DNA of 64,000 nt from Deltaproteobacteria bacterium (GCA_029547805.1 JAKPOP010000010.1:680452-744451), one strand, 5' to 3'; positions 9,124 through 56,506 are shown, counted from the first letter of the stretch. Numbers and translations are program-made. The notes: generated from the letters alone by a model not told the origin.

Positions 9124-9678
9124 CGATCACGCTCCTTGAACCAGGGGCCATGCCCCGACCACGCCCGAATGCCTCGGGCCTTCCGGCGCCCGCCCCACTG
9201 GCTGGCAACCGGTCCCTCCTGGATCAGGTCTGCCTCGACTCACGGTATCGATCTGATCCTGGGGTCATGAAGGCCGGTGGGACCACAGAACCCGGGAACG
9301 CGGATCGAACGTGGACAGGGTAGCCACCTCCAGAAGCAGGTCGATGATAACGCTTTGCCAGGAAAAGTCAACAAGCCCAAGGACAGCCATTGAACGACTC
9401 GACACAACCGACCGTTCTGACAGGGAATTCGCCGTCACGAGGGGGACGCTCGGGGGGAGGTCGGGGCCGGGTCGCTGCGGTCCCGGCGTGGCAGAATGGG
9501 GAGGCCGGACCCCCGGTTGGCCGACGCCGCCAGGGCGGAGTCGCCAGGGGGATCCGCTCCCAGGGCCGGATTTCGCATTGCACCGCCTCATGGGGATGCT
9601 ACAAGACACCGGAGGGCCGGCGGACATCCCCGGGACCGCCGGTGACGGAACTCCCGGGAAGACCAGGAGAGGACGCCC

Positions 9679-11907
9679 ATGTTCGACATCGAGAGGTCCC
9701 TGGAAACGCGGCTGCTGGAAATGGGGCGGGACCGGCCCACGGTGGTCTTCGTCGAGGCCCTGGATCCCCGGGTGCTGGAGGCCGTCTGCCACCTCACCCG
9801 CTTCTGTCGCCCGGTGCTGCTGGCCTCCCGGGAGGAGGTCCTGGAGTGCGTCCGGCAGCACCTCCAACACGTGGACCCGGCCCGGGTGGAGTACGCCCTC
9901 TCGGAGTGCGCCTTCATCCCGGTCCCGGAACAGGAGGACCTGCTCCGGGAGTTCGAGGAGGCCATTCGGGACCGCCCCGACTGCCGCTGGATCGCCCCGG
10001 AGGCGCAGGGAAGACGCAGCCGGGTGCTGGACCCGGGGATCTTCGGACTCTTCGCGGTCCGGCTGGGCCATGCGGACGTCGTGGTCGGCGGGGCGGCCCA
10101 TGCCCCGAAGGACTGGTTCCGGCCCATGCTCCGGCTCTTCGCCACCCGCCGTGACGTCTGCGAGGCCGGGATCTTCGTGCTGCCCGACGATCACCCCACG
10201 GAGATGTTCCCGAACAACATCGTGGTGTTCGGCGACGTGGCCGTGAACGCGACGATGACCCCCGACGTGCTGGCGGAGGTGGCGGTGGGGACCTGCGCCG
10301 TGGCCCGAGACATCATCCCCGAGGAGGTCCTGCCGACGATCCACGGGGCCATCGTCTCCTACTCGAACCGGGGATCCGACGAGGGCCCGTCCCCCATGCT
10401 GGTCCGGGCGGCGATGGAGAGGGTCCCGGAGGTGCTTGCCCGACGCATCACCCGTGGGGAGCGCTATCGGAGCATCCGGATCTCCGGGGAGGTGAAGATC
10501 AGCGCGGCCCTCTCCCAGCGATCGGCGGCCTACCACCTCCAGGGCGGCGAAGGGGGCCCTCTGGACCCCATCAACGTGGTGATCTGCCCGAACCTGGACA
10601 TGGGAAACCTGCTCTACAACCTCTACGCGGTCCGGTTCCCCCAGGCGCGGAAGTTCCCCCTCCTGACCGGCGTCGGGAGCCAGGCGGTGGACCTGGCGAT
10701 GGACACCGCGCCGGAGGATGTCCGGCTGGCCGTGAAGGCCACCCTGCTGCGCCTGCACCTCCACGGGGGATGGAACCGCACCCCGAAGGACACCTTCTTC
10801 CCACGCTACCGGGTGCTCGCAATCAATCCCGGAAGCACCTCGACCAAGATCGCCGTGTACGAGAACGATCGGGAGGTCTTCACCGAGGAGGTGCAGCACT
10901 CCCGCGAGGAGATGGCCCCCTTCGAGGGAAGACGCATCGTCGAGCAGTACGCCATGCGGCGCGACGCGGTGCTGGCGGCCCTGGCTCGCCACGGGCTGTG
11001 CCTCGCGGACATCGACGCCGTGTCGGCCCGGGGAGGCCTGGTGCGGCCGATTCCCCACGGGACCTACCGGGTGGACGAGGCGCTGATCCGGGACCTCCAG
11101 ACCGGGGTCCAGGGAGACCACGCCTCCAACCTCGGGGGGCTCATTGCGGACCAGTTGACCGCGGGTACCGGGAAGCCGGCCTTCATCGTGGACCCGGTGG
11201 TCGTGGACGAGGTCCCCTCCCGGGTCAAGATCACGGGCCTCCGGGAGATCCGGAGGCGGGTCATCAGCCATGCCCTGAACCAGGTCGCCACGGCCCGGCG
11301 CTTTGCCGAGGAGCAGGAGACCTTCTACGAGCGGGTCAACGTGGTGGTGGCGCACCTGGGGGGCGGAATCACGGTGGGAGCCCACCACCAGGGGCGCTAT
11401 GTGGACGTCAACAACGGCCTGGACGGGGAGGGCCCCTTCACCCCGGAGCGTTCGGGGTCCTTGCCGGTGGGCCAGCTGATCGACCTCTGCTTCAGCGGCC
11501 GGTACACCCGGGAGCACTTGAAGGCCCTCAACAAGGGCCGGGGAGGCCTGATGGACCTGCTCGGGACCAAGGACCTCCGGGAGGTGGAACGGCGCATCGC
11601 CGAGGGAGATGCCTGGGCCGCCGAGGTCTTCGAGGCCCTGGCCTACCAGGTCGCCAAGTGGGTCTGTTCGCTGCTGCCGGCCTTCGACGGGGAGCCCCTC
11701 GACGCGGTGATCCTGACCGGGGGCATGGCCCGGAGCCAGGCCCTGACCGGGCGCATCCGGGACTTCCTCCGGGCCCTGCCCTGTCCGGTGCGGGTCTACC
11801 CCGGGGAAAACGAGATGATGGCGCTGGTGAAGGGGGCCCTCCGGGTCCTCCATGGACGGGAACCGGCGCTCCTCTATCGTCCCGCCCCGCCCGTCGAGTC
11901 TCCCTGA
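9679..11907 (+). CDS. Fused phosphate acyl(butyryl/acetyl)transferase - butyrate/acetate kinase (Ptb/Pta-like N-terminal half + Buk-like C-terminal half)
   Basis: 742 aa. N-terminal roughly 340 aa has a phosphotransacylase fold. C-terminal half starts RVLAINPGSTSTKIAVYEND... (butyrate-kinase N-motif) and ends with the ASKHA-fold kinase region. SD GGAGAGGA upstream. Confidence 0.85.
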   Translation: MFDIERSLETRLLEMGRDRPTVVFVEALDPRVLEAVCHLTRFCRPVLLASREEVLECVRQHLQHVDPARVEYALSECAFIPVPEQEDLLREFEEAIRDRPDCRWIAPEAQGRRSRVLDPGIFGLFAVRLGHADVVVGGAAHAPKDWFRPMLRLFATRRDVCEAGIFVLPDDHPTEMFPNNIVVFGDVAVNATMTPDVLAEVAVGTCAVARDIIPEEVLPTIHGAIVSYSNRGSDEGPSPMLVRAAMERVPEVLARRITRGERYRSIRISGEVKISAALSQRSAAYHLQGGEGGPLDPINVVICPNLDMGNLLYNLYAVRFPQARKFPLLTGVGSQAVDLAMDTAPEDVRLAVKATLLRLHLHGGWNRTPKDTFFPRYRVLAINPGSTSTKIAVYENDREVFTEEVQHSREEMAPFEGRRIVEQYAMRRDAVLAALARHGLCLADIDAVSARGGLVRPIPHGTYRVDEALIRDLQTGVQGDHASNLGGLIADQLTAGTGKPAFIVDPVVVDEVPSRVKITGLREIRRRVISHALNQVATARRFAEEQETFYERVNVVVAHLGGGITVGAHHQGRYVDVNNGLDGEGPFTPERSGSLPVGQLIDLCFSGRYTREHLKALNKGRGGLMDLLGTKDLREVERRIAEGDAWAAEVFEALAYQVAKWVCSLLPAFDGEPLDAVILTGGMARSQALTGRIRDFLRALPCPVRVYPGENEMMALVKGALRVLHGREPALLYRPAPPVESP

Positions 11908-11920
11908 TCCCACCCGGGAA

Positions 11921-11967
11921 CGAAGACCCGGGGCCGCCCCGGGCGTTGGAAAGCCCCGGGCTTTTTC
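11921..11967 (+). terminator. Candidate intrinsic terminator after ptb-buk (GC hairpin CCCGGGG-CCG-CCCCGGG, then AAAGCC-CCG-GGCTTTTT)
   Basis: Inverted repeats read directly. The second hairpin is followed by a T5 run about 55 nt downstream of the stop codon. Confidence 0.45.
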
Positions 11968-12007
11968 CGATAATGGGGGTCGCCTGTTGATCGGGAGAGG
12001 GAACGAC

Positions 12008-14161
12008 ATGGAATCCCGTCGATGTCCGGGAAGTCGCCTGGTGGGGATCGTGCTGGTGATGGTCTGGACCTTCGCCTGTGGCGGGGGATCCGGGACCGGG
12101 GGGATCGACGTGCTGCCCGAGGACCTGTCCGGCGTGCCGGACGGATCCCTGCCCGACGAGGCGCTGCCGGACAACGCAGCCCCCGACGCCGAGGTCGCCG
12201 GGCCGGACCTCGCGCCCGATGCGCCGGCGGACCTCGGGTCCACCGAGGACGTCGGCGGCGGAACCGACGTCCAGGCCTTCTGCCAGACCGACCAGGAGTG
12301 CGACGACGAGAACGCCTGCACGACGGATCGGTGCGTGGCCGGTCGCTGCGTGCTGTCGCGTCTGGTCTGCAACGACCTGGACCCCTGCACGATCGACTTC
12401 TGCGACCCGGTCAAGGGATGTGGGACGCTGCCGGTGGAGGGGTGCGTCACCCCCGTCTGCGAGAAGGCCACGGACTGCAATGACTCGGACCCCTGCTCCG
12501 AGGACCTCTGCGATGCGACCACCGGGACCTGCTTCTACCGGCCCGTGACCTGCGATGACAACGACCCCTGCACGGTGGACTCCTGCACGCCGGGAGTGGG
12601 GTGCGTCTCCTGGAGGGACGGGTCCTGCTCCAGGTGCCTGCTGGACTCGGAGTGCGACGACCGGGATGTCTGCACCACCGATCGCTGCGTCGACGGGGCC
12701 TGCACGCACCTGCTCACGGTCTGCGACGACAAGAACCCCTGCACCCAGGATCGCTGCGACCCCCGGAAGGGTTGCCTGGCGGTGCCCCTTGCGGGATGCG
12801 GCCCGTGCCAGACCAACGACGAGTGCGACGACGGGGACGTCTGCACCCAGGACGCCTGCAAGGACGGCCAGTGCCTGCACCAGGACGTCCCCTGCGACGA
12901 TGGCAATGCCTGCACCGCCGATCGGTGCGTCCGGGGCCCGGGCTATCCCTACTGCGCCTATGACAGCCTCCCGGAGGGAACGGCCTGCGACGACCAGGAC
13001 CCCTGCACCGGACCCGACATCTGCTCCCAGAAGACCTGTGTCGGGACGCCGTTGTCCTGCGATGACGGAGACCCGTGCACCCAGGACTCCTGCGACCCGG
13101 CGGCCGGCGGATGCCTGCACGTCCGGATCCCGGGCTGCGGCACCGGGTGCACCGGCGATGCGGCCTGCGACGACCACGACCTCTGCACGACGGACCGGTG
13201 CGTGAAGGGCCTCTGCCAGAACACCCCGGTCTCCTGCGACGACGGCAATGCCTGCACCGCCGATTCCTGCGACCCGAAGACCGGGACCTGTGTCTTCGAG
13301 GCCATTCCCGGCTGCGGGACGAAGTGCCAGGTGGACGCCGACTGCAACGACAACGACGTCTGCACCCGGGACAAGTGCGTGAACGGGGCCTGCCAGTTCA
13401 CCGCCATCGTCTGCAACGACAACAACCCCTGCACGGTCAACGACCGGTGCGTCCGGGGACCGGGCTACCCCTACTGTGCCTACGACCCGGCCCCCGATGG
13501 GACCGCCTGCGACGACGGGAACCTGTGCACCCAGAAGGACCAGTGCCTCCAGAAGACCTGCACGGGCACCGCGGTCTCCTGTGATGACGGCGATCCCTGC
13601 ACGACCGACGCCTGCGACCCCGCCAAGGGCTGCACCCACACCGCGATCCCGAACTGCAATGTGAAGTGCCAGGCCGACGCCGACTGCAACGACAACGACG
13701 TCTGCACCCGGGACAGGTGCGTGAACGGCCTCTGCCAGTTCACGGCGATCATCTGCAACGACAACAATCCCTGCACGGTCAATGACCGGTGCGTCCGGGG
13801 ACCGGGCTACCCCTACTGCGCCTACGATCCGGCCCCCGACGGGACCGCCTGCGACGACGGGAACCTCTGTACCCAGAGGGACCAGTGCCTCCAGAAGACC
13901 TGCACGGGCACCGCGGTCTCCTGCGACGACGGGAATCCCTGCACCACGGATGCCTGCGACGCCACCAGCGGGAAGTGCAGCCACACGGCCATCCCCGACT
14001 GCGTGACCCCCTGCCGGACCTCCAGGCAGTGCGACGACGGCAATCCCTCCACCTGCGACTGCTGCTGTGCCCTGTCGGGGTCCGCCTACCAGTGCTACAA
14101 CGTCGCCTCCCCCGTGGGCGTGTGCCCCCCCTGCACCCAGGTCCCGGGCTGCGTCCAGTGA
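12008..14161 (+). CDS. Secreted Cys-rich repeat lipoprotein (myxobacterial-type CxDxxxCTxDxC...CDDxNxCTxDxCDPxxGxC modules)
   Basis: Start at ATG 12008 (M53 of the track ORF) gives signal peptide MESRRCPGSRLVGIVLVMVWTFACGGG with a lipobox-like FAC. SD GGGAGAGGG upstream. About 18 Cys-rich modules. 718 aa. Confidence 0.8.
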   Translation: MESRRCPGSRLVGIVLVMVWTFACGGGSGTGGIDVLPEDLSGVPDGSLPDEALPDNAAPDAEVAGPDLAPDAPADLGSTEDVGGGTDVQAFCQTDQECDDENACTTDRCVAGRCVLSRLVCNDLDPCTIDFCDPVKGCGTLPVEGCVTPVCEKATDCNDSDPCSEDLCDATTGTCFYRPVTCDDNDPCTVDSCTPGVGCVSWRDGSCSRCLLDSECDDRDVCTTDRCVDGACTHLLTVCDDKNPCTQDRCDPRKGCLAVPLAGCGPCQTNDECDDGDVCTQDACKDGQCLHQDVPCDDGNACTADRCVRGPGYPYCAYDSLPEGTACDDQDPCTGPDICSQKTCVGTPLSCDDGDPCTQDSCDPAAGGCLHVRIPGCGTGCTGDAACDDHDLCTTDRCVKGLCQNTPVSCDDGNACTADSCDPKTGTCVFEAIPGCGTKCQVDADCNDNDVCTRDKCVNGACQFTAIVCNDNNPCTVNDRCVRGPGYPYCAYDPAPDGTACDDGNLCTQKDQCLQKTCTGTAVSCDDGDPCTTDACDPAKGCTHTAIPNCNVKCQADADCNDNDVCTRDRCVNGLCQFTAIICNDNNPCTVNDRCVRGPGYPYCAYDPAPDGTACDDGNLCTQRDQCLQKTCTGTAVSCDDGNPCTTDACDATSGKCSHTAIPDCVTPCRTSRQCDDGNPSTCDCCCALSGSAYQCYNVASPVGVCPPCTQVPGCVQ
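13322..14001 (+). repeat. Near-perfect tandem duplication (2 x about 340 bp, about 93% identical) inside the Cys-rich lipoprotein gene
   Basis: Copy 1 is about 13322-13661 (GAAGTGCCAGGTGGACGCCGACTGCAACGACAACGACGTCTGCACCCGGGACAAGTGCGTGAACGG...). Copy 2 is about 13662-14001 (GAAGTGCCAGGCCGACGCCGACTGCAACGACAACGACGTCTGCACCCGGGACAGGTGCGTGAACGG...). Earlier modules are far more diverged. Confidence 0.8.
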
Positions 14162-14164
14162 CCG

Positions 14165-15943
14165 ATGCCGATGGGAAGCGCCGAACGGCCCCGGGCCGGC
14201 AGGGCCGGTACGATCCGGAGGCACGCCCCCGTGCGACGACGAATCGCCACCGCGATCGCCTGCTGGGTCTGGGCCACCGGCTGTGGGATCCCGGAGGGAA
14301 TCGGGCCGGATCCCAGAGTCCCGGGGACTCCGGACACGGCGGACCCGGCGGACCCCGGCTCGGAGACGCGAGACGACGGCGCCGGGGATGCGGCGATGAC
14401 CACCGACCGAGAGACAGACCCGGGCCAGTCCCAGGGAGAGGGGGTCGGTCGGGAGGTCCCGGAGGTGGACCCCCTGCACGACGGCGATCCCCCGGCCGAC
14501 GGCAGTCCCCCGGACCTGGGCCCCCGGACCGACCTCCCGGACCAGGACCCGATGCCAGACCCGGGGACTGGCCCGGCGCCCTGGCGGTCCTCGGTGTCTC
14601 GGGAGGAGATCCGTGCGTTGTTGCAGCACTGCGACAGGACCGCCCTGGAGGACCTCCTGGAGACTCGCTACGACGGGCCGGTCTGCGATGACCGGGGCTG
14701 CACGCTGATCACCGACCCGGGGCCCGGAGCCGTCTCGATCCGCGGGTCCTTCAACGGCTGGAGCGAGACGGCCATGACCCCCGTTCCCTGCGCCCCGGGG
14801 ACCTTCCTGGCGGAGGTGGGCCCGGTGCCCCCAGGGTCCGACGCCTGGGAATACCGGATCTTTCATGATGGCCAGTGGAGAGACGACCCCCGGAACCGCT
14901 ACATCCGGTTCAGCGACCTGGCCATCAACGGGGCCATGTACCGTCCCGGGGTACCCCGCCTGGCCCGGGTCCAGGGACTCCGGTCCGAGGCCCTCCCGCT
15001 CCCCAGAGACGTCTATGTCTTCGTGCCGGCAGAGGCCTATGAGGACCCCCTCCGGCGATTTCCGGTCCTGCTGCTCCAGGATGGCTGGAACGTCTTCGAC
15101 AACCCCCGGGCCCCCTTCGGGTCCTGGAGGGTGGACCGGTCGGCCCGGGCCCTGATCGAGGCCGGTGCCATCGAACCGGTCCTGCTGGTCGGCATCGCCA
15201 CCGCGGACCGGATCAACGAGTACCTCTACACGGACCTCTGGGTCAGCGGGTCGGGGCAGTCGTTCCAGGTCAAGCCCCGACTTCCCGACTATGCCGACCT
15301 GTTGATCCAGGTGGTCCTGCCGGCGATCCGGTCAGGGTTCCCGGCACGGACCGGACCGCGGAACACCGCCATCGGCGGGTCGTCCCTCGGGGGCATCTCG
15401 GCCTTCTGGATCGCCTGGCATCACCCGGAGGTCTTCGGCATGGTCGCCGCCCTCTCGCCCTCGTTCTGGGTCGGGGAGCCGGGCAGCGGGACCGAGGAAA
15501 AGCCCTCGATGCGGGAACTGATCGCGGCCCAGCCGCCGACTCCGGCCCAGCGTGCGTTGCAGATCTACCTGGACAGCGGGGACGGGGGCTATTCACCCGG
15601 CGGAGGTGATGACCCGCCCTATGCCTGGGATGGCCGGGCCTACACCGACTGGACCCGCAACCTGTTGATCCAGCTGGGTTGGCCCAATCGGCCCGAATGG
15701 GACACCGACGGAGACCCGGCGACGGCCCCCGAGGACCTTCCGCTGGAGACGGACCCTGACCGGGTCCCTGCGTTGCGATGGTCCGCCACGACCCCCGCCG
15801 GCTATCGCGACCTGGACGCCTACCTCCGGCCCGATCTGTCGCTGCTGAGCCTCCTGGGGGTCGGACATCCGCACAACGAGGCCGCCTGGGAGCAGCGCTT
15901 CCCCACAGCGCTGCGCTTCCTCTTTCCCGGCGAGTCACCGTAG
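14165..15943 (+). CDS. Putative esterase (esterase-D/enterochelin-esterase-like alpha/beta hydrolase) with an N-terminal Ig-like/early-set domain. Probable lipoprotein.
   Basis: GGSSLGG nucleophile elbow. N-terminal SIRGSFNGWSE...WEYRIFHDGQW resembles CBM48/E-set. An alternative GTG start at 14231 gives signal VRRRIATAIACWVWATGCG with a lipobox. Confidence 0.75.
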   Translation: MPMGSAERPRAGRAGTIRRHAPVRRRIATAIACWVWATGCGIPEGIGPDPRVPGTPDTADPADPGSETRDDGAGDAAMTTDRETDPGQSQGEGVGREVPEVDPLHDGDPPADGSPPDLGPRTDLPDQDPMPDPGTGPAPWRSSVSREEIRALLQHCDRTALEDLLETRYDGPVCDDRGCTLITDPGPGAVSIRGSFNGWSETAMTPVPCAPGTFLAEVGPVPPGSDAWEYRIFHDGQWRDDPRNRYIRFSDLAINGAMYRPGVPRLARVQGLRSEALPLPRDVYVFVPAEAYEDPLRRFPVLLLQDGWNVFDNPRAPFGSWRVDRSARALIEAGAIEPVLLVGIATADRINEYLYTDLWVSGSGQSFQVKPRLPDYADLLIQVVLPAIRSGFPARTGPRNTAIGGSSLGGISAFWIAWHHPEVFGMVAALSPSFWVGEPGSGTEEKPSMRELIAAQPPTPAQRALQIYLDSGDGGYSPGGGDDPPYAWDGRAYTDWTRNLLIQLGWPNRPEWDTDGDPATAPEDLPLETDPDRVPALRWSATTPAGYRDLDAYLRPDLSLLSLLGVGHPHNEAAWEQRFPTALRFLFPGESP

Positions 15944-53956: not shown

Positions 53957-56506
53957 TCACCGGGAGGACCGGGCCCGGGACGGAGGCCGGGACTCGTCGG
54001 GGACCGGCACGGATCGCCGGCGGCCCAGGACCAGCAGGAGGCCCAGGCCCAGGAGCCCCCACACACCCGAGGCCGTCCCTTCCGAGGCCGCGGTTCCGCA
54101 CCCGCTGGAAGTGCGTCGGCCACCAGGACCCACGTCCTCGCCGGCAGGGTCCCCCTGGGGCCCCGGCGTCTCGGCCACGGCATCCTGTCCAGGACCAGGC
54201 TCCCGCAGGTCCCGGGCCTCGCCGTCGGGTCCAGCCTCGCCTGCGTCCGATCCACCCGACAGGTCGGAGGGTCCCTGGTCGGGCAGGTCTACGGTCCCGA
54301 CGTCCGACGGGGTGTCGGGGGCCTCGGGACCGGGGGCCTCGGGGGTGGGTTCGGGGTCACAGGCCGGGTCATGGACGCCGACACAGAGGCCCCGGCCGTC
54401 GCAGGAATCCTCCCGGGTGCAGGGATCCCCGTCGTCGCACTCGGTGCCCTCCTCGGCGAAGGGGCTGGTGCAGGTCCCGGTCCCGGGGTCGCAGGTCCCG
54501 GCGACGTGGCAGGGCGAGGCCGGAAGACACATCACCAGATCCTCGCCCACACAGATCCCGTCCCGGCAGGCATCGGATCGGGTACAGGGGTTCCCGTCGT
54601 CGCACCCCGTCCCGTCGGTGGCCGGAGGATTCGTGCAGGTCCCGGTCGCCGGGTCGCACCGCCCGGCCACGTGGCACGCGTCCTGGGCCATGCACGTCAC
54701 CGGGTTCCCGCCGGTGCAGACCCCCGCCACACACCGGTCCGTCCGGGTGCAGGCATTCCCGTCGTCGCACCCCGTCCCGTCGGCCGCCGGGGTCTTCCGG
54801 CAGGTCCCATCCACGCAACTCTCCACCGTGCAGGGGTTCCCGTCGTCCGGGCACGCGCCACAATCGACGCACCCGTCGAACCCGCAGGATCCTGCATCAC
54901 AGGCCGCCCCGATCGTGCAGACCCGGAACGAGATCGTGGTTCCGGTAGCCCCGATGTCGAAGACGCGAATGCCTCCCGGGGCCCCTGACGACAGGAACGG
55001 ATAGGGGTTCCGGCCGGCGCTGAAGTCGGTCCGGCCGTAGTCCTGGGCCATCACCGCATTCTCGATGGTCCCCTCGGCAGAGGGCGTCCCGCCGGGCCGG
55101 AAGACATACACCTCGTCGGGCGGTCCCTCGGAGTTCCCCGACAGGGAGGGGTTGACGCGATAGGCCAGCAGGCCGGTCCCCGGCAGGGACGTCTCGTACG
55201 ACCCGGTCCGCCTTCGGTACTCCAGGAAGAAGTACTCGGTGGACGACCCGGGCGCCGCCACCAGCAGGTGGTTGTCCACGGGGCTGGTGACGTCGTTGAG
55301 GGTGAACCGCCCGCGCACCACTTGCCTGAGCGCCGGGATCCACCCGCCGTAGCGATACTTCATGTAGGCGCCCATGTGCTGGGGCGTCGGAAAGGTCCCC
55401 TCCATCAGGTCCCAGGGCCCCACCGGCGTCCGGCCATCCAGGCTGTAGTGATAGAGGTCCGGCGCGCCCAGCGTGTGGAACATCTCGTGGCACAGCACCC
55501 CCAGCTCGATCCAGGAGGACAGTTGGAGGTTGAAGTCCCACACCCGCTTGCCCCGAATGTCGGCCTCGTACAGGTAGAGGGACCACCGATGGGGCCACAG
55601 CAGTTCGGCCCAGGAACCGTAGGCCCCCTGGACCACCAGCACGACGCTGTCCACGTAGCCGTCGGCATCGGCGTCGATGTTCAGTTCCGCTGGGACCTGG
55701 CCGGCAATGGCGGTCACCGCCCGGGCCACCAGGGCCTGTTCCCGTTCGATCCGCTGGGAACCGTCAGCCCCCCCCTGGTAGCCACCCGGATTGAACCAGG
55801 GGTCGTAGGGCTCGTAGTAGGACCTCGGATAGGGGTCCTGGTAGGAGACGACGTACCCCCCGGAGGGCACCGGGAAGAAGGAGGACTGGATGGCCAGTTG
55901 CTGGTAGGAGACCTCCCGGAAGTAGGACCACATCGAGAGGCCAGGGCCGTTCATGAGCCCGTCATAGACCCCGATGGGCTGGCCGAACTCGGCCTGGTCG
56001 CTGAACCGGACGAAGACCACCAGATTGTTCAGGACCCCTCGACGGGGGGCGGGATTCAGCGGTGCGGGGGACAGGGATGGCGTCGTCGGGGTTCCGGAAT
56101 CCGGGGCCCGGGAGGGCGACGGGACCCGGGGTGGCCGGGGCACCGCGCCCAGCCAGGGGACCAGCGTCTGTGGCGCATCGGCGGCCTGCGGCGACAGTCC
56201 CATCCGCTCCGGGTCGGCCTGGCCGACGGCCAGCACTGTGGGGACCAGCCGCCCGCCCACCTCCGCCCCGTACACCCACCAGCCCGTCGGGTCCCGGACC
56301 ACGGTGAATCCCCGGGCGTCGTGGACCCGCTGGCGGTACTCGTCGCCGCTGACCAGGAGCCACCACTCGGTGCCGTCAGGCTGCACGACCCGGACCGGCC
56401 TGTCCCGCAGCGGCGCCCCTGCCGCCGGACCACCGGCGAGGACTCCCAGCAGCATCGCGACTGCCAGCCGTCGAAACCTGCCACCGATCCCCAACCACCG
56501 GGCCAT
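53957..56506 (-). CDS. M6-family (immune-inhibitor-A-like) zinc metalloprotease with C-terminal Cys-rich repeats and MYXO-CTERM-type tail
   Basis: Signal MARWLGIGGRFRRLAVAMLLGVLAGGPAAGA. HExxH CHEMFHTLG. Repeats CDDGNACTRTDRC... (same module as the gene at 12008). Tail ...SSGCGTAASEGTASGVWGLLGLGLLLVLGRRR, followed by 18 extra residues before the stop. Confidence 0.85.
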   Translation of the reverse strand: MARWLGIGGRFRRLAVAMLLGVLAGGPAAGAPLRDRPVRVVQPDGTEWWLLVSGDEYRQRVHDARGFTVVRDPTGWWVYGAEVGGRLVPTVLAVGQADPERMGLSPQAADAPQTLVPWLGAVPRPPRVPSPSRAPDSGTPTTPSLSPAPLNPAPRRGVLNNLVVFVRFSDQAEFGQPIGVYDGLMNGPGLSMWSYFREVSYQQLAIQSSFFPVPSGGYVVSYQDPYPRSYYEPYDPWFNPGGYQGGADGSQRIEREQALVARAVTAIAGQVPAELNIDADADGYVDSVVLVVQGAYGSWAELLWPHRWSLYLYEADIRGKRVWDFNLQLSSWIELGVLCHEMFHTLGAPDLYHYSLDGRTPVGPWDLMEGTFPTPQHMGAYMKYRYGGWIPALRQVVRGRFTLNDVTSPVDNHLLVAAPGSSTEYFFLEYRRRTGSYETSLPGTGLLAYRVNPSLSGNSEGPPDEVYVFRPGGTPSAEGTIENAVMAQDYGRTDFSAGRNPYPFLSSGAPGGIRVFDIGATGTTISFRVCTIGAACDAGSCGFDGCVDCGACPDDGNPCTVESCVDGTCRKTPAADGTGCDDGNACTRTDRCVAGVCTGGNPVTCMAQDACHVAGRCDPATGTCTNPPATDGTGCDDGNPCTRSDACRDGICVGEDLVMCLPASPCHVAGTCDPGTGTCTSPFAEEGTECDDGDPCTREDSCDGRGLCVGVHDPACDPEPTPEAPGPEAPDTPSDVGTVDLPDQGPSDLSGGSDAGEAGPDGEARDLREPGPGQDAVAETPGPQGDPAGEDVGPGGRRTSSGCGTAASEGTASGVWGLLGLGLLLVLGRRRSVPVPDESRPPSRARSSR

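Follow-up and report, generated by a model that had tools for sequence, protein, structure and literature searches.

A tandem pair of cysteine-rich modules in the gene for a predicted lipoprotein from an uncultured Myxococcota bacterium, and its probable origin as an old array homogenised by recombination

Related cysteine-rich and repeat-containing surface proteins

The Dicty_CTDC repeat marks proteins of the extracellular matrix in Dictyostelium (PMC4931340). The bacterial protein described here is built from the same 24-residue cysteine-rich Pfam repeat as the Dictyostelium family that includes ecmA, ecmB, pdiA, and psiA. Like the Dictyostelium matrix proteins, which are secreted, extracellular, and made up almost entirely of tandem repeats (PMC4931340), it is predicted to be a secreted, extracellular protein consisting of little else than such repeats. 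Unlike them, it is bacterial, is predicted to be anchored as a lipoprotein, and is without a PA14 domain. Its repeats are also arranged differently from those of the Dictyostelium proteins, in modules of 114 amino acids with a CVRGPGYPYCAYD insert, and the protein ends in a CDCCC cap that was found in a small clade only.

The TraA protein of Myxococcus xanthus has an architecture of a variable domain, cysteine-rich repeats, and MYXO-CTERM (PMC13184517). It resembles the protein studied here in being a myxobacterial envelope protein in which cysteine-rich tandem repeats lie beside a functional end (PMC13184517). In contrast to TraA, the predicted anchor here is an N-terminal lipobox rather than MYXO-CTERM, and a PA14-like variable domain is absent. 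Neither the TraA-type cysteine repeat nor MYXO-CTERM was detected in an NCBIfam search (E ≤ 0.1), and the C-terminus, …CPPCTQVPGCVQ, is without a hydrophobic helix or Arg cluster, so it has no MYXO-CTERM-like tail. Elsewhere in the window, by which we mean the whole 64,000-nucleotide stretch of DNA that was analyzed, the M6 protease encoded at 53957-56506 does match MYXO-CTERM, with 18.1 bits.

A third comparison is with the heavy chain of the Entamoeba lectin, the arm of which is elongated, is rigidified by inter-domain disulfides, and does not bind sugar (PMC12948311). The cysteine-rich arm of this Gal/GalNAc lectin heavy chain was the best Foldseek match to our predicted structure (local 3Di, E 9e-9). 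Both the lectin arm and, as predicted, the present protein are chains of disulfide-linked hairpin pseudo-domains of about 20 residues that make up a rigid arm.

Concerted evolution is well known for the tandem repeats of surface proteins, for example streptococcal alpha C/Rib and, reportedly, the yeast FLO adhesins. The gene described here is like those for alpha C/Rib and FLO in that repeats within a gene are more similar to each other than to the orthologous repeats, and in that the copy number changes in frame through recombination. It is unlike them in that the copies are 8% diverged rather than nearly identical and number only two or three. Given this divergence, the small number of copies, and the fact that no strain-level variation was observed, turnover appears to be slow here compared to alpha C/Rib and FLO.

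The gene and its predicted product

The source of the window, which has a GC content of 71%, is an uncultured Myxococcota bacterium. The closest species-representative genome is that of Myxococcota bacterium Go_SlDig_bin_299 (L007), and going by the isolate name of this relative, the habitat of the organism appears to be an anaerobic digester. The gene at 12008-14161 was called identically in two public assemblies, and its start codon is backed by a GGAG ribosome-binding site that is conserved in the orthologues. The upstream neighbor encodes a PTA-butyrate kinase fusion (pta-buk) and is separated from the gene by a 100-nt gap. A consensus scan of this gap gave two overlapping promoter-like matches at a single site, where 0.1 were expected. 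L007 has the conserved motif, and a nearly matching one is present in contig L003, which carries one of the other orthologues. No functional link to the neighboring genes was established: only the upstream pta-buk gene is positionally conserved, and the downstream neighbors differ among the orthologues. An Rfam scan of the window found no RNA. An antisense open reading frame of 1112 amino acids (11528-14866, - strand) was rejected as a by-product of the 71% GC content; the support from the protein family and from homologues, in searches made with the + frame product, is all in the + frame. The features of the locus, all on the + strand, are listed below.

about 11936-11966, + strand: GC-rich hairpin followed by a T5 run (minimum free energy fold), 3' of the pta-buk gene and overlapping the promoter-like site
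11946-11974, + strand: candidate promoter-like TTGGAA-17-GATAAT (consensus scan of the 100-nt intergenic region)
12008-14161, + strand: gene for a predicted lipoprotein with Dicty_CTDC repeats, 717 amino acids, stop codon included (open reading frame; Pfam PF00526)
12008-12079, + strand: predicted signal peptide with a lipobox-type cysteine, MESRRCPGSRLVGIVLVMVWTFA followed by C24 (match to a lipobox-type expression; AlphaFold2 helix at residues 9-22)
12080-12268, + strand: acidic Pro/Asp-rich linker, amino acids 25-87, predicted to be disordered (composition; pLDDT)
12800-13141, + strand: diverged older module copy, m1, amino acids 265-378 (68% nucleotide and 58-62% amino acid identity to the tandem pair)
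13142-13321, + strand: spacer of 60 amino acids between m1 and the tandem pair, with two CTDC repeats and 10 cysteines
13322-13663, + strand: first tandem module copy (W2), amino acids 439-552, with 18 cysteines and four beta-hairpins
13664-14005, + strand: second tandem module copy (W3), amino acids 553-666, with 18 cysteines and one extra codon in its tail
14006-14158, + strand: C-terminal cysteine-rich cap, …CDDGNPSTCDCCCALSGSAYQCYNV…PGCVQ (cap motif comparison)

The 717-amino-acid protein contains 106 cysteines, 104 of them beyond Cys24, and its cysteine-rich repeats fill about 580 residues. The N-terminus (MESRR…IVLVMVWTFA-C24) has a positively charged n-region, a hydrophobic h-region, and a lipobox-type cysteine, which was recognized with a regular expression modeled on PROSITE PS51257. 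The -3 position of the lipobox is Thr, where the canonical residue is Leu. A scan with the same type of expression showed that an N-terminus of this kind is kept in the orthologues and in most of the full-length homologues. Judging from its sequence, the protein is probably exported and lipid-anchored at Cys24, in agreement with the original prediction of a secreted, disulfide-rich lipoprotein.

The protein belongs to the Dicty_CTDC family (Pfam PF00526), which it matched in 13 stretches with an E-value of 2e-71 and a score of 235.7 bits, where the gathering threshold is 27. The periodic motif C-x-D-x(2-4)-C-T-x-x-D-x-C was found as a 42-nt motif present 18 times and as 20 in-frame matches to a regular expression. 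In an alignment of 43 sequences the cysteine columns were invariant, as were many Asp and Thr positions across the family. The cap motif was present in the seven closest of these 43 sequences, the query included. A search of the 58-amino-acid cap against 1.84 billion representative proteins returned eight matches at E ≤ 0.001, which were essentially the orthologues and partial matches to repeats, indicating that the cap does not represent a domain of wide distribution. For the full-length protein, an NCBIfam scan returned no family at E ≤ 0.1, a sequence search of the PDB returned no match at E ≤ 1, and a Foldseek comparison to viral models gave nothing informative. There was no recognizable binding domain in the Pfam, NCBIfam, or PDB sequence searches.

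An AlphaFold2 model based on the 43-sequence alignment had a mean pLDDT of 76.8, with values of 75-93 across most of the repeat region and below 50 at residues 24-87, and a pTM of 0.34, as expected of a long flexible object. In the model, an N-terminal helix and a disordered stretch are followed by an uninterrupted chain of beta-hairpins, four per 114-amino-acid module. This suggests a lipid-anchored, disulfide-stapled rod or spacer of beta-hairpins, the length of which would depend on the number of modules. The acidic disordered linker would hold the rod away from the membrane, and the rigid rod of about 25 disulfide-stapled hairpins would end in a small cysteine-rich cap at its distal end. 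With such a design, it is the module number that would set rod length.

Orthologues, copy number, and possible functions

Four orthologues of the protein were found, in addition to the one in the genome of the window (referred to as WIN). The L007 protein has 681 amino acids and about 85% identity to that of WIN (580 of 681 aligned positions are identical). The others are P0001 (825 amino acids, 75% identity), P0003 (713 amino acids, 53% identity), and P0002 (832 amino acids, 48% identity). The PTA-butyrate kinase fusion gene was found upstream in L007, in L003 (which encodes P0001), and in L004/L005 (P0003), indicating that the genes in these contigs are positional orthologues. P0002 is outside the synteny comparison, as its contig, L006, ends before the upstream neighbor.

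Tandem modules were found at the same place in all four orthologues, with synteny confirmed for three of them. There are two module copies in WIN, L007, and P0003, three in P0001, and two or three in P0002. A scan of metagenome contigs with a degenerate pattern for the junction between the copies yielded one contig only, L020, which is from the same species as L007 and also has two copies, so both L007-type assemblies have the same number. Modules m2 and m3 of P0001 are 96% identical at the nucleotide level in a codon alignment; the three-copy state of this gene is known from one short-read contig, which stops about 0.6 kb away from the gene. L007 lacks exactly 36 amino acids, corresponding to WIN residues 355-390 with 6 cysteines, in frame and between two repeats. 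The three modules of P0001 and the 36-amino-acid deletion of L007 indicate that length variation between species by repeat recombination is real. The length variability that had been proposed for this protein is therefore seen among its orthologues, at 681, 713, 717, 825, and 832 amino acids.

Variation in copy number was seen between species only; all WIN-species contigs encode the identical 717-amino-acid protein, as found by an exact-sequence look-up that is blind to variant lengths. All length changes that were observed involve even numbers of cysteines, 18 with each module and 6 with the segment missing from L007, as would fit a structure in which the disulfide register has to be maintained. 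Near-identical internal modules were also found in other members of the family (87% in P0030, 95% in P0072, and 98% in P0114, over 60 amino acids), indicating that such behavior is common in the family.

Polysaccharide binding has been reported for some Dictyostelium cysteine-rich repeat proteins. The protein could be an adhesin or a matrix-binding protein, such as a polysaccharide binder, in which case the number of modules would tune valency and not reach. This is possible but on balance doubtful. Dicty_CTDC repeats are indeed a component of ecmA, ecmB, and other extracellular-matrix proteins of Dictyostelium (PMC4931340), the layout is that of a secreted repeat protein, and the lengths of the orthologues vary. 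However, no binding domain was detected, the cysteine-rich arm of the only solved analogue is not the ligand-binding part (PMC12948311), and no copy-number variation was seen within this species among the contigs with the exact protein, a comparison in which variant lengths are invisible.

Bacterial homologues join CTDC arrays to a variety of head domains, including FGE-sulfatase, C-type lectin, MAM, and NosD, and as far as sequence can tell this diversity fits a scaffold role. A more far-reaching proposal is that the group of orthologues with 114-amino-acid modules and the CDCCC cap are Myxococcota-specific, disulfide-stapled molecular rulers with an N-terminal lipid anchor, in which module recombination would be selected because it tunes the reach of the cap from the membrane. 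The fold would then link bacterial CTDC rods to the cysteine-rich arms and matrices of amoebozoans, such as the Entamoeba lectin heavy chain and the matrix proteins of Dictyostelium, implying an old transfer between kingdoms. We regard this proposal as improbable.

History of the tandem pair

An in-frame tandem duplication of a cysteine-rich module within this gene had been predicted at 13322-14001, and it was found there, with codon-registered bounds of 13322-13663 and 13664-14005. The unit is 114 amino acids rather than the 113 first given, and the original figure of about 93% identity was slightly high, since the first 300 nt of the copies are 91-92% identical. Tandem Repeats Finder reported 13321-13967 with a period of 342, 1.9 copies, 91% matches, 0% indels, and a score of 1112, and a repeat search found 13321-13620 to be 92% identical to 13663-13962 over 300 nt. 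When the gene was compared to itself at all offsets, the sole strong signal was at 342 nt. At this offset the best 300-nt identity was 0.917 and at every other offset in the gene it was 0.617 or less (mean 0.33, sd 0.05); the tandem repeat is therefore real and stands well above the background of short repeats. As the period of 342 nt is equal to 114 codons, the reading frame is kept. The upstream modules had been described as far more diverged, and this was the case for m1, at the identities listed above.

Over the first 303 nt, which form a gap-free core, W2 and W3 are 91.4% identical. Ungapped identity over the full 342 nt is only 85% because of an additional codon close to the 3' end of the second copy. 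Of the differences between the two copies, 17 are synonymous and 9 non-synonymous (dS 0.316, dN 0.039, ratio 0.12), and the longest run of identity between them is 45 bp. From this pattern of substitution, both copies are judged to be under purifying selection.

The history that best accounts for these copies, a genuine pair in the gene for a putative disulfide-rod lipoprotein, is that of an old tandem array, the core of which has been homogenized by recombination. We assign this explanation as a whole a probability of roughly 0.65. A tandem array would already have been in place at this position in the common ancestor of WIN and its relatives, and since the species split, recombination between misaligned or paired copies would have repeatedly overwritten the core of the module. 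Such repeated overwriting would leave the copies resembling each other more than their positional counterparts in other genomes. Gene conversion would homogenize the core, while unequal crossing-over would also add or remove whole modules, and would have added the module in P0001 and deleted the segment in L007.

Several features of the pair are shared with L007. The junction between the copies, PNCNV/KCQ, is common to both genomes, and the first copies of both have a one-codon deletion (A[KT]G-CTH) that is absent in their second copies and in all three P0001 modules. This first-copy deletion is derived. The shared layout, junction, and first-copy deletion indicate that the pair predates the split between the WIN and L007 species. 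The informative sites in the 303-nt core were then sorted by the grouping that they support: 19 unite the copies of one genome, 4 follow position, and 2 do neither. The four sites that follow position are non-synonymous and lie at the edges of the module, so the case for an array older than the split, which comes from these four sites and one indel, is thin. Two observations weaken the case for this history. The signal of positional orthology consists of four non-synonymous edge sites and one codon deletion, and the inserted codon of the second copies differs between the genomes (AAG versus GGA).

The larger class of sites follows the pattern expected of concerted evolution, in which copies within a genome are closer to each other than to their positional orthologues, and this holds with synonymous sites included. 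Ten of the 19 sites that group by genome are synonymous third positions. Nearly all of the 19 fall within one putative gene-conversion tract, which has a counterpart in each copy.

13433-13573, + strand: putative gene-conversion tract, the core of copy 1 at unit codons 38-84, where all informative sites group by genome
13775-13915, + strand: partner tract in copy 2 (pattern of informative sites)

Of the 19 concerted sites, 18 lie in the tract at unit codons 38-84, and all 4 orthology sites lie outside it. Synonymous divergence showed the same pattern, with a dS of 0.316 for W2-W3 versus 0.46-0.50 for W2-L2 and W3-L3 and 0.49 for the single-copy part in the WIN-L007 comparison. Because W2-W3 dS is lower than the single-copy dS between WIN and L007, homogenization came after the split. 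In a neighbor-joining tree of all modules, the tandem modules of any one of the five genomes formed a clade of their own (bootstrap 86-100), and the isolated module m1 grouped by orthology with the m1 modules of the orthologues (bootstrap 100).

The original prediction favored a recent expansion. A single duplication in the WIN lineage after the split, starting from an ancestor with one copy, would account for the clustering of each genome's copies and for a W2-W3 dS (0.316) below the between-species value (0.49). Such an event is nevertheless quite unlikely. Synonymous divergence between the copies already amounts to about two thirds of that between WIN and L007. In all four orthologues, two or more tandem modules occupy this position and have this junction, and the derived codon deletion and certain edge residues are common to the first copies in WIN and L007 but missing from the second. 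The scenario would call for five separate duplications, each with the same boundaries. For the same pair, an origin by independent duplications combined with parallel selection is likewise unlikely.

An old pair could in principle have stayed alike with no homogenization, through strong constraint on the module core. The low dN/dS (0.12) is in keeping with such constraint, as is the invariance across the family of the cysteines and of many Asp and Thr positions. However, constraint of this kind is a highly unlikely cause of the similarity, since synonymous third positions make up 10 of the 19 within-genome sites, W2-W3 dS is below the 0.46-0.50 of W2-L2 and W3-L3, and the isolated module m1 evolves by orthology.

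The possibility of a repeat wrongly expanded or collapsed in assembly, with a true copy number other than two, had also been raised. In this gene family, assemblies are in fact broken by repeats: one contig, L020, begins inside the orthologous gene, and that of P0001 stops 0.6 kb past its gene. The window is identical, base for base over 22,154 nt, to both L001 (NCBI GCA_035372385.1) and L002 (JGI 3300025720), two contigs of different length, although the samples may not be independent, and the exact 717-amino-acid protein is carried by 7 contigs in the index. An artefact is very unlikely, with the slimmest prospects of these alternatives, given this agreement between two different assemblies, the difference of the copies at about 8% of core positions, a longest identical run (45 bp) that is shorter than a typical short read so that ordinary reads span the sites distinguishing W2 from W3, and a skew toward synonymous differences that indicates divergence under purifying selection and not mis-assembly.

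More than 5,700 Dicty_CTDC homologues were matched, and the best 120 all carry PF00526. A limited literature search turned up no functional work on the bacterial proteins, which make up a very large and apparently uncharacterized family. The history proposed here, an old array with a homogenized core, is an ordinary one for repeat proteins and does not challenge current understanding. It does provide a worked example of a pair of copies that, looked at in a single genome, has the appearance of a recent duplication or an assembly error, and that four orthologues reveal as an old array probably kept alike by gene conversion, in which whole modules have been gained and lost between species.

Length changes in the orthologues

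The CTDC gene, which encodes a predicted lipoprotein of Dicty_CTDC repeats, varied in length among its orthologues. The closest orthologue (contig L007, 3001-5046) had a clean in-frame deletion of 36 amino acids, corresponding to residues 355-390 of the window's protein and including six cysteines, that sits between two CTDC repeats. This deletion is a second type of repeat-mediated length change within the gene. The orthologue P0001 (contig L003, 8001-10478; 75% identity) contained three of the tandem modules, a state that is seen in a single short-read contig ending 0.6 kb past the gene. Because the first two of these modules are 96% identical at the nucleotide level, the extra copy is truly recent.

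A second assembly of the species of L007 (L020, 1-953; JGI contig Ga0302250_1000181) started inside the orthologous gene, in the repeat region, and differed from L007 at 2 of 933 nucleotides. Assemblies therefore do break in the CTDC gene.

The genome encoding the orthologue P0003 contained another Dicty_CTDC protein, of far greater length (>1,769 amino acids; L004, 15955-18142), about 6 kb downstream of the CTDC orthologue.

Genes and signals flanking the CTDC gene

The following features surround the gene in the window:

9679-11907, + strand: fusion of a PTA_PTB (phosphotransacetylase-like) domain with butyrate kinase (pta-buk), 742 amino acids (TIGR02707, E 3e-133)
11936-11974: imperfect GC-rich hairpin followed by TTTTT, overlapping a conserved promoter-like TTGGAA-17-GATAAT
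14165-15943, + strand: PF00756 esterase, downstream of the CTDC gene
16158 to about 24161, + strand: Bat/MoxR operon-style cluster
11528-14866, - strand: very long antisense open reading frame, 1112 amino acids, overlapping real genes
9265-12522, - strand: very long antisense open reading frame, 1085 amino acids, overlapping real genes

The pta-buk fusion was found immediately 5' of the CTDC gene in the window, L003, L004/L005, and L007, and was the only neighbor conserved in position. The short intergenic region between them may have a double role, terminating the pta-buk gene and starting the CTDC gene. The two antisense open reading frames are interpreted as artefacts of a GC content of 71%.

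Like the CTDC protein, the esterase had a lipobox-like signal at its N-terminus (…WVWATG-C) and a similar long, acidic Pro/Asp-rich linker. L003 carried an equally sized esterase on the opposite side of the pta-buk gene. Members of the cluster further downstream were a MoxR AAA ATPase, DUF58, VWA-domain proteins, a VWA-TPR protein, and BatD.

A metalloprotease with other cysteine-rich repeats

53957-56506, - strand: M6-family metalloprotease protein, 849 amino acids, with a TIGR03296 match and an HEMFH motif

The TIGR03296 score (122.6 bits) exceeded the cut-off of 110.8. The protein contained three 55-amino-acid Cys-rich repeats (GTGCDDGNPCT…) of a type unlike those of the CTDC protein, and ended in a GCG-hydrophobic-RRR tail that scored slightly below the MYXO-CTERM cut-off (18.1 bits versus 20). 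It is the window's second predicted Cys-repeat envelope protein, with a putative anchor different from that of the CTDC protein.
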